Shown: one piece after another, positions 47,491 through 48,754 of the stretch
Position numbering within the stretch: position 1 is the stretch's first letter
Layout: every line of letters starts with the position of its first letter
Source: a virus
Taxonomy: Duplodnaviria; Caudoviricetes
DNA length: 64,000 nucleotides
Virus record (IMG/VR): IMGVR_UViG_3300011560_000001
Span: 64,001-128,000 of that record
Direction: 5' to 3' (one strand)
Translations under genes and position numbers: made by a program
The notes under the pieces: generated by a model
What the model was told of the DNA's origin: nothing
Seen by the model: only the letters and a program-made list of their open reading frames with translations
Database searches by the model: none

Positions 47491-47508
47491 GGCTATATTA
47501 CGAAAGTG
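47491..47508 (+). promoter_or_regulatory. phiKZ-type early promoter inside the intron, upstream of the HNH ORF
   Basis: GGCTATATTAC-GAAAG-TG, the same extended motif as four intergenic copies. Confidence 0.7.
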
Positions 47509-47542
47509 TAGTTAGTTTCACTGCACAAGAGGAATATAGTCA

Positions 47543-48754
47543 ATGAGTGAGAAGGTATTTAAGACCGTAACGGAATTCCCATTCCTGGAGATATCCATAG
47601 ATGGAACATTGCGTAACAAGGAATCGAAGTTTGAATACTTGCCCATCATCATTGCTGGATATTATCGTTATTCGTTTCGAGGTCATGATGGAACACTGGT
47701 TTACCGTTCCATGCATAGACTTCTAATGTTAACGTTCCGGAACATCGATGATGCGCATTTGCTCCATGTGAACCACAAGGACGGCAACAGACTTAATAAC
47801 TACCTTGATCCCGACGGTAACACCGAGAATGACAATCTTGAATGGGTTACGCAGAAAGAGAACAACCAGCATGCTCGCATTATGAACATGCGTAAACGTT
47901 CAATTGCTGCCTACGGTAAACCTATTCAGGTTCGTGATGTTGATACCGGTGTTGTAACCAGATATCCATCCATGACGGAAGCGGCACGCGATCTTGGTGT
48001 GAATATCGACTTCATTCATCATCGTGTCTATAGAGGCAAACAGCGAGCGTTTCCTGAACGTAAGCAGTACCGCAAAGATTACGGCGATGAACCGTGGCGT
48101 ATTCCTACCAAATACGAGTTAGCAACGTTGACGGATACGGGAAGTAAGGGTGTGATTGCAAGGTCAACGATAACAAAAGAGATTCATCTTTTCGAATCAT
48201 TGACTGAATTCGCGAATCACATTGGTGTTAAGTTATCCACTGCGTCGATGTACGTTAACGACAAGAACCAACCTGTCGTTAATGGTTGTTATCAAGTTAA
48301 GTGGGTTACTGATGAGACGCCATGGCGAGAAGTCGAAGATAGTATCCTGGAGTTGGAGAAGACAACCAACAAACGTGCTATTGTCGTCATTCCTGAAAAT
48401 GATGTACCTCTGTTGTACCTTTCGGCCGTCGATTGCGCTGAAGAAATGGGTATATCTACCACGTTACTCAATTACCGTTTGAAGTCCGATGGGATGACTA
48501 AATTTCCTGATGGAAAACGCTATATTTACTATTCTGTTTACAAAGAGCGGGTCCGTTTATACGGTGACGTATGGACGAGATTCATTGAATTGCGGGGACG
48601 CCCAATGCTGCCTTCAGCCAAAGCGGAAACGGAAACGTTAGACGTGCGAGAAGCGAGACGTATTGCTCGTAAAGCAGGCTTTAAAAATGAAGAGTTGACC
48701 GCGACAAAAGTTCGTGGTCCGCAGGCCAAGGGTAATCCGCAGCCAATCGCCTAA
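47543..48754 (+). CDS. Intron-encoded HNH homing endonuclease (NUMOD4-HNH-IENR1/NUMOD1 repeats, I-HmuI-like)
   Basis: EISIDGTLRN, MHRLLMLTF, VNHKDGNRLNN and NLEWVTQKENNQHA; three HTH-like repeats YPSMTEAARDLGV, FESLTEFANHIGV, YLSAVDCAEEMGI; SD GAGG. Confidence 0.92.
   Translation: MSEKVFKTVTEFPFLEISIDGTLRNKESKFEYLPIIIAGYYRYSFRGHDGTLVYRSMHRLLMLTFRNIDDAHLLHVNHKDGNRLNNYLDPDGNTENDNLEWVTQKENNQHARIMNMRKRSIAAYGKPIQVRDVDTGVVTRYPSMTEAARDLGVNIDFIHHRVYRGKQRAFPERKQYRKDYGDEPWRIPTKYELATLTDTGSKGVIARSTITKEIHLFESLTEFANHIGVKLSTASMYVNDKNQPVVNGCYQVKWVTDETPWREVEDSILELEKTTNKRAIVVIPENDVPLLYLSAVDCAEEMGISTTLLNYRLKSDGMTKFPDGKRYIYYSVYKERVRLYGDVWTRFIELRGRPMLPSAKAETETLDVREARRIARKAGFKNEELTATKVRGPQAKGNPQPIA

Follow-up and report, generated by a model that had tools for sequence, protein, structure and literature searches.

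The question raised by the locus described here is whether a homing endonuclease gene that lies within a group I intron carries a promoter of its own, from which it would be read at the onset of infection by the virion RNA polymerase (RNAP), in one of whose genes the intron is inserted. The locus is part of a 64,000-nt stretch of a Caudoviricetes genome (positions 64,001 to 128,000 of IMG/VR record IMGVR_UViG_3300011560_000001), which is called the window below; coordinates are positions in the window unless marked as genome. The source genome (237,533 bp, 46% G+C) is that of a jumbo phage, a chimallivirus closely related to Escherichia phage Goslar. The group I intron (47465..49047, + strand, 1583 nt) interrupts a gene for a beta-like subunit of the virion RNAP and contains a gene for an HNH homing endonuclease of the I-HmuI / phiPA3 gp210 type (47543..48754, + strand, 403 aa; assigned by Pfam and homology). 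An early-promoter-like motif, GGCTATATTAC-GAAAG-TG (47491..47508, + strand), precedes the nuclease gene, and most of its core also forms one arm of an RNA hairpin. The motif belongs to a family that is very probably the early-promoter family of this phage; that the intron copy is a working early promoter is predicted here with about equal weight for and against.

The motif family was characterized in three genomes. In the 237.5-kb source genome TATATTAC occurs 14 times, every time on the + strand. The looser pattern TAYATTAC-N5-TG gave 14 matches on the + strand and none on the − strand (chance expectation 0.45 per strand), and the strict form G-N-C-TATATTAC-N5-TG gave nine on the + strand, the intron site counted (chance expectation 0.017 per strand). 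Thirteen sites lie outside the intron; all are intergenic and on the + strand, a + strand open reading frame (ORF) with a ribosome site begins 25–204 nt downstream of them, and one sits before a chimallin homologue. Four of them fall inside the window (5515, 18057, 31177 and 55466; genome 69515, 82057, 95177 and 119466) and nine outside it. A long consensus, consisting of an A/T-rich block, TTCACGGC, TA(T/C)ATTAC and YT-N3-TGA, is found at 12 sites; a weaker 13th fits the core pattern. Goslar has 13 such sites, on one strand only and all with YT. The first 50 kb of phiPA3, searched de novo, gave eight sites (2326, 13721, 16242, 20300, 27512, 37490, 39487 and 48678), all on the + strand and built of an A-rich block, CTATAT(T/C)A(C/T), N4 and (K)TG; one of them precedes chimallin gp053. 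Chimallin of phiKZ is an early gene with an early promoter (PMC8244752), and chimallivirus early promoters have been described as an AT-rich element about 10 nt before the start together with −20 and −30 elements (PMC7598289, PMC8244752, PMC11512511). Because of the chimallin site, the phiPA3 architecture and the fit with these descriptions, the family is very probably the early class of promoter, used by the virion RNAP.

Two further observations were made on the family. The early-promoter architecture is common to Pseudomonas and enterobacterial chimalliviruses. The 13 canonical sites of the source genome fall into two upstream sub-classes, AATCCAACATTTTTCACGGC and ATTGAAAAAAA...; most of them then have a hairpin that starts at the predicted start, and in four of them the hairpin is followed by a common GGCGAC...GTTAC element.

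The intron copy completes the 14 matches of the loose pattern and also has the strict form. It is composed of GGCTATATTAC (47491-47501), N5 (GAAAG, 47502-47506) and TG (47507-47508), with a predicted start at 47507/47508; the pattern TA(T/C)ATTAC-N5-TG, together with a G at position −3 and a C at −1, was matched exactly at 47491-47508. The first-pass annotation had placed a full extended early motif 26 nt inside the intron and had treated the motif as one of an early class. The position is as the sequence reads, and the class agrees with the chimallin site and with the architecture recovered de novo from phiPA3; the words "full extended" hold for core-N5-TG, which is exact and rarer than chance, and fail for YT, for TGA and for most of the upstream block.

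The surroundings of the copy are in part those of a promoter. It is noncoding, it lies on the strand of the downstream nuclease ORF with AAGAGGAA in between, and the distance to the nuclease ATG at 47543 is 52 nt from the motif start and 35 nt from TG; the predicted 5' untranslated region (5' UTR) of 35 nt compares with 31–40 nt typical of phiKZ 5' UTRs (PMC8244752). Of 12 canonical sites, seven carry a hairpin that begins at the start site; the intron site has a hairpin that keeps this register (z = −2.2). In the ranking of 149 non-canonical cores (≤1 mismatch) by flank score the intron copy came first, with −7.8 bits; the 55-column weight matrix is overfitted to 10–12 sites, mixes the two upstream sub-classes and was used for ranking only. 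The upstream score falls within the top 0.1–0.2% of genome positions, far under the canonical sites. The motif is identical in four related metagenome contigs. Upstream of the RNAP operon neither an early motif nor a sigma-70-like promoter was found, and a sigma-70 promoter before the nuclease gene was likewise not found.

Several results weigh against a working promoter. The flank score is about 40 bits lower than in the canonical sites (30–44 bits); the core is followed by GA, as against YT in all 26 own and Goslar sites; TGT replaces the TGA of all 13 own sites; and the copy deviates over most of the upstream block. The ATTG upstream of it, which is −30-like and matches one canonical sub-class, is conserved intron sequence in relatives that lack the motif, and it was therefore not counted as promoter support. 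The motif is absent from all of the approximately 20 related introns at the same site, and it was found neither in the Goslar beta' intron (gp206) nor in the DNA polymerase intron of the source genome itself. The version in the phiPA3 leader is degenerate (two core mismatches, no TG), though gp210 is functional, and the phiKZ intron nucleases gp72 and gp179 have been described without internal start sites (bioRxiv 10.1101/2025.11.23.690004). The segment 47465-47508 is 100% conserved among relatives, a degree of conservation on a par with the phage backbone that may come from a function of the intron RNA. The use of this conservation as evidence for a promoter was dropped, the identity being that of the backbone and the region perhaps having been shaped by recombination. 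The positions at which the intron copy deviates just after the core and after TG are the ones that vary among phiPA3 early promoters; because of this variation, YT and TGA may be a habit of the lineage rather than a requirement.

The leader RNA can be folded into a hairpin (47491..47541, + strand; outer stem 47491-47498/47534-47541, inner stem 47506-47512/47520-47526) with a predicted free energy of −17.6 kcal/mol (z = −3.7). Most of the motif core is the 5' arm of this hairpin (47491-47498), upstream of the predicted start; the stem ends 2 nt before the nuclease ATG, and the ribosome site of the HNH gene, the Shine-Dalgarno region AAGAGGAA (47527..47534, + strand; assigned from sequence), lies within the interior loop. 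In the RNA predicted to begin at 47507 the ribosome site is unpaired, as the promoter reading expects; it is a point against that reading that the site itself is unpaired in the full hairpin as well, GAGG being in the interior loop and a single G being paired. Nuclease alleles of 72–79% identity diverge from 47509 on, yet AGGAATATAG(T/C)CAATGAG is kept; the 3' arm of the hairpin is thus conserved inside a block that is otherwise 53–75% identical, and the substitution T47540C in relatives changes a G·U pair into G-C. Among related introns at the DD site, a hairpin immediately ahead of the nuclease ATG, in most cases one that pairs GGAG, is present in about 19 of 21 (L002 4315-4380, L003 4309-4371, L102-L126). 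Because these introns have the hairpin and lack the motif, the hairpin is, on comparison of the leaders, a feature of the family, the early-promoter core being an addition of this lineage only. The tetramer TATG, known from phiKZ late promoters, was also looked for in the hairpin loops of the related introns; it was present in 12 of 21, as against 9.6 in shuffles (P = 0.19), and is not claimed as a signal.

The nuclease has the domains expected of its type. Pfam gave NUMOD1 (34.4 bits, above cut-off), I-TevI_DNA-bd (25.9 bits, slightly under the cut-off of 27) and a weak match to HNH_3 (16.8 bits), the two DNA-binding modules being located behind the nuclease domain, and the catalytic pattern VNHKDG...NLEWVT...N..H is present; N77, H78, N98, N107 and H110 are invariant among 21 homologues. 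The best match among solved structures is PDB 1U3E (I-HmuI; E 2.4e-5), which spans the HNH and NUMOD region. The closest phage relative is phiPA3 gp210 (36% identity, E 3e-56), whose catalytic histidine H82 aligns with H78 of the nuclease; the H82R mutant of gp210 is inactive (PMC11620839). Three nuclease alleles were found in metagenome contigs (99%, 79% and 72% amino-acid identity). Because dN/dS between the alleles is about 0.1, and dS is 1.1–2.4 as against 0.21 in exon 1, the nuclease gene is judged from its substitution pattern to be functional and far older than the backbone that carries it. In comparison with L084, L085 and L086 the nuclease body from 47509 to about 48514 is a mosaic block (53–75% nucleotide identity; backbone about 96%), bounded on the left immediately behind the motif's TG and on the right at the onset of the ribozyme core; one leader is common to the three alleles.

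The intron and its host gene were delimited as follows. Exon 1 (44258..47464, + strand, 1069 codons; taken from the ORF list) ends with ...AADRDD; the ORF 44258-47467 reads into a TAA at 47465, and the frame is picked up at 49048 with PKRLVFIG.... At the nucleotide level exon 1 terminates at 47464 (...GATAGAGATGAT) and the intron opens at 47465 (TAAGGC..., with TAA in frame); U47464 before the intron and the intron-terminal G49047 are the letters that a group I intron should have. The Rfam model RF00028 was matched over its full length at 48529-48952 with 51.4 bits (gathering score 50, E 4.9e-11). Removal of the intron gives a gene of 4347 nt, which is the length of the uninterrupted Goslar gp207, 95.3% identical and collinear with it. 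The ribozyme core (P2/P3 to P9; 48529..48952, + strand; from the Rfam alignment) shares 48529-48754 with the C-terminal part of the nuclease gene, so that the final 75 nuclease codons overlap P3-P6; nucleotide and amino-acid conservation climbs again from about 48514. Exon 2 (49048..50187, + strand; PKRLVFIG...) was assigned by frame continuity, collinearity and 93% identity to Goslar. Exon 1 is 31% identical end to end with phiPA3 gp211, a virion RNAP beta protein, and both stop at DD; the insertion is after ...DD, the site of the phiPA3 gp210 intron, which corresponds to D1072 of phiKZ gp178 (PMC11620839). On this evidence a true group I intron interrupts a virion RNAP beta gene, and it is nearly certain from the comparison that intron and nuclease together are a further member of the gp210 kind. 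Near the 5' splice site no convincing internal guide sequence for P1 was found; within the ORF there are many 6-bp candidates, none of them prominent. The heptamer TTCATTG is present at 47471-47477 and again at about 48580, within the P3 region.

Relatives of the intron and nuclease were obtained via protein search, contig look-ups and one metagenome scan. A search of IMG/VR for close relatives yielded distant HNH genes only, and the exact 21-mer was unmatched there; in the phage collection the sole match was Goslar exon 2, blastn with the intron core gave zero matches, and the E. coli genomes and plasmids searched contained no relatives. An intrinsic-terminator-like hairpin (50193..50209, + strand) follows the gene; the Goslar annotation has a terminator at the equivalent place, and it is the first terminator 3' of the putative internal start, none being found between 47508 and 50193. 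Two other introns were noted. In Goslar a group I intron that carries the HNH gene gp206 splits the beta' gene within GGD|FDGD (L001 5071-8765), and the beta gene has no intron, while in the window phage the beta' gene (42566-44254) is uninterrupted; the introns of the two phages are thus reciprocal. Outside the window (genome 1484-4263, minus strand) a second 403-aa HNH gene of the same family lies in an intron of the gene for the N-terminal part of DNA polymerase, the exon of which ends ...RLFVAD; the arrangement is that of Goslar gp068/gp069, and the leader of this HNH gene has no early motif.

The explanation preferred for the locus, to which an even chance is assigned, is that the nuclease of this mobile gp210-like intron, an HNH nicking enzyme of the I-HmuI type, is under a switch of the T4 I-TevI style that has been rewired to early time. 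The 78-nt leader would carry an early promoter core, G-N-C-TATATTAC-N5-TG, that doubles as the 5' arm of the hairpin. In pre-mRNA made by read-through of the RNAP operon the hairpin would fold and keep ribosomes off the nuclease frame; as the last third of this frame is P3-P6 of the ribozyme, the exclusion of ribosomes would protect splicing. The injected virion RNAP would initiate at about 47507 and give transcripts without the 5' arm, on which the ribosome site would be free. The nuclease would then be produced when infection begins, and could nick intron-less alleles for homing or interference.

The best surviving alternative is a silent motif that only resembles the promoter. On this reading the nuclease would be made from the pre-mRNA of the RNAP operon or from the excised intron and be timed by the operon, as is assumed for phiKZ gp72 and gp179, and the sequence would have been retained as the 5' arm of a hairpin that serves translational control or intron folding. 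This is a serious possibility, somewhat short of an even one. The non-canonical flanks agree with it, as do the related introns, about 19 of 21 of which keep the hairpin before the nuclease ATG and not the motif, and the reported lack of internal start sites at the phiKZ intron nucleases (bioRxiv 10.1101/2025.11.23.690004). The equivalent arm of phiPA3, GTCTATACTCC, is similar without matching the promoter, so few changes lead from an ordinary arm to the core; and with an expectation of 0.45 per strand a match to the loose TAYATTAC-N5-TG could arise by chance. What a silent arm leaves unexplained is the choice of letters. A hairpin constrains complementarity, not sequence, and the AC of the core, TG at N5 and G/C at −3/−1 are not accounted for by it, most of these positions falling beyond the outer stem. 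By chance the strict pattern should turn up only 0.017 times per strand, and by flank score the site ranks first of the 149 non-canonical cores.

A cryptic promoter, at which the virion RNAP would start weakly and to no selective advantage while the nuclease came mainly from operon transcripts, is improbable. It would account for a core that is intact while the extended consensus is missing, and for a motif confined to one lineage; it would not account for the geometry of the start relative to the hairpin and the ribosome site, which is what would make the transcript translatable, nor for the retention of an identical leader by all three nuclease alleles at dS 1.1–2.4. That the start is real and its main product is something other than the nuclease, namely an RNA that has the whole ribozyme but lacks a 5' exon and acts in trans or by 3' hydrolysis, or a transcript that runs on into exon 2 up to the terminator at 50193, is very unlikely: the stretch 47508-50193 without a terminator and the full ribozyme core in such a transcript would allow it, but a ribosome site and an ATG lie at the usual distance from the start, the nuclease frame is under strong purifying selection, the ATG of exon 2 (49087) has no ribosome site of its own, and an internal guide sequence was not located.

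The early-promoter reading bears on the use of the nuclease as a weapon, for which the premises and predictions of the first-pass annotation fared differently. Its identification of the interrupted gene as a virion RNAP gene is confirmed by the homology to phiPA3 gp211/209 and the common ...DD end, and its parallel with gp210 by the relationship of the two nucleases and their common histidine. Its two literature premises are sound as well: intron nucleases of T4 are restricted by internal middle/late promoters together with a hairpin that sequesters the ribosome-binding site (PMC2988022), and gp210 of phiPA3, which confers a competitive advantage, introduces a nick into phiKZ gp178 (PMC11620839). 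The presumption that the host gene is late is open to doubt. According to PMC4666361 the virion RNAP genes of phiKZ are middle genes; in Goslar, however, detection at 5 min already extends to 175 of 249 genes (bioRxiv 10.1101/2023.09.20.558163); for these reasons the lateness of the host RNAP gene is uncertain. Cutting of intron-less relatives, the remaining prediction, is weakened by the nearest known intron-less allele, that of Goslar, which matches the proposed 21-nt site at 13 of 21 positions only; cleavage of this allele is therefore uncertain. Around the intron site, from −120 to +40 (47345-47464 and 49048-49090), identity to Goslar falls from about 95–100% to about 70%; almost all changes in this tract are synonymous, and the rest of the gene is about 95% identical. 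The tract looks like co-conversion from a distant donor or like escape of the target site in Goslar from cleavage.

A wider proposal, that a hairpin/internal-promoter switch has been moved from late to immediate-early, so that the nuclease would be among the first phage products, and that a two-way interference or speciation barrier with Goslar would result, is tentative and is put below even chance. Read-through operon transcripts would remain translationally closed and splicing would be protected; the beta intron of the window phage and the beta' intron of Goslar may together give a barrier in both directions between phages that are 95% identical. As weapons in co-infections of nucleus-forming phages, intron nucleases have so far been demonstrated in a single pair, that of phiPA3 and its competitor phiKZ (PMC11620839), and the timing and mode of expression of the nuclease were not addressed in that work. 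The locus described here is a counterpart in an E. coli system and yields a specific prediction on regulation, namely that transcription starts early at 47507 and that the RNA so made lacks one arm of the hairpin. Natural controls exist: the leader is identical in front of three nuclease alleles, and a phage with 95% identity lacks this intron and has another. If the proposal is true, the same RNA logic can set the timing of a homing endonuclease at either end of the infection cycle. If the promoter is real, control of the T4 type operates on intron nucleases in a variant form not previously known; if the promoter prediction is wrong, the locus adds one more intron, an ordinary one, to the gp210 family.

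Among known systems the phiPA3 gp210 intron is the nearest. It is likewise in the virion RNAP beta gene (gp211/209), inserted after ...DD, with a hairpin directly before the nuclease ATG. Relative to gp210, the window nuclease has about 70 extra C-terminal residues, which overlap the ribozyme core, and the phiPA3 leader, unlike that of the window intron, has no intact early motif; phiPA3 is a Pseudomonas chimallivirus and the window phage an enterobacterial Goslar-like one, and the activity of the window nuclease is predicted from homology. Like the window nuclease gene, phiKZ gp72 and gp179 and Goslar gp206 are HNH genes in group I introns of chimallivirus RNAP genes, and a hairpin likewise precedes the ATG of gp206; the insertion sites of these introns differ from that of the window intron, and the Goslar intron is without TATATTAC. 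For HNH homing endonucleases that nick a single strand, I-HmuI is the type example. It is distant in sequence from the window nuclease and less than half its length, and comes from an intron in the DNA polymerase gene of a phage of Gram-positive bacteria (Bacillus phage SPO1; PDB 1U3E). The regulatory parallel is with the T4 td intron. I-TevI is a GIY-YIG enzyme, the window nuclease an HNH one; the T4 promoters are middle/late and served by the host RNAP, while the window motif belongs to the early class, that of the virion RNAP; in T4 the ribosome site is itself paired within the hairpin, and in the window leader it is in an interior loop; and an operator resembling the homing site and laid over the promoter, as with I-TevI, was not found in the window leader (best match 10/20, reached by every shuffle). 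The 3' end of the I-TevI ORF enters the ribozyme core, as does that of the window nuclease ORF (PMC2988022), and in both cases translation must therefore be limited for the sake of splicing. In td / I-TevI, and likewise with I-TevII and I-TevIII, a transcript from the internal promoter omits the 5' arm of the hairpin (PMC2988022), and the predicted start at 47507 has the same geometry.

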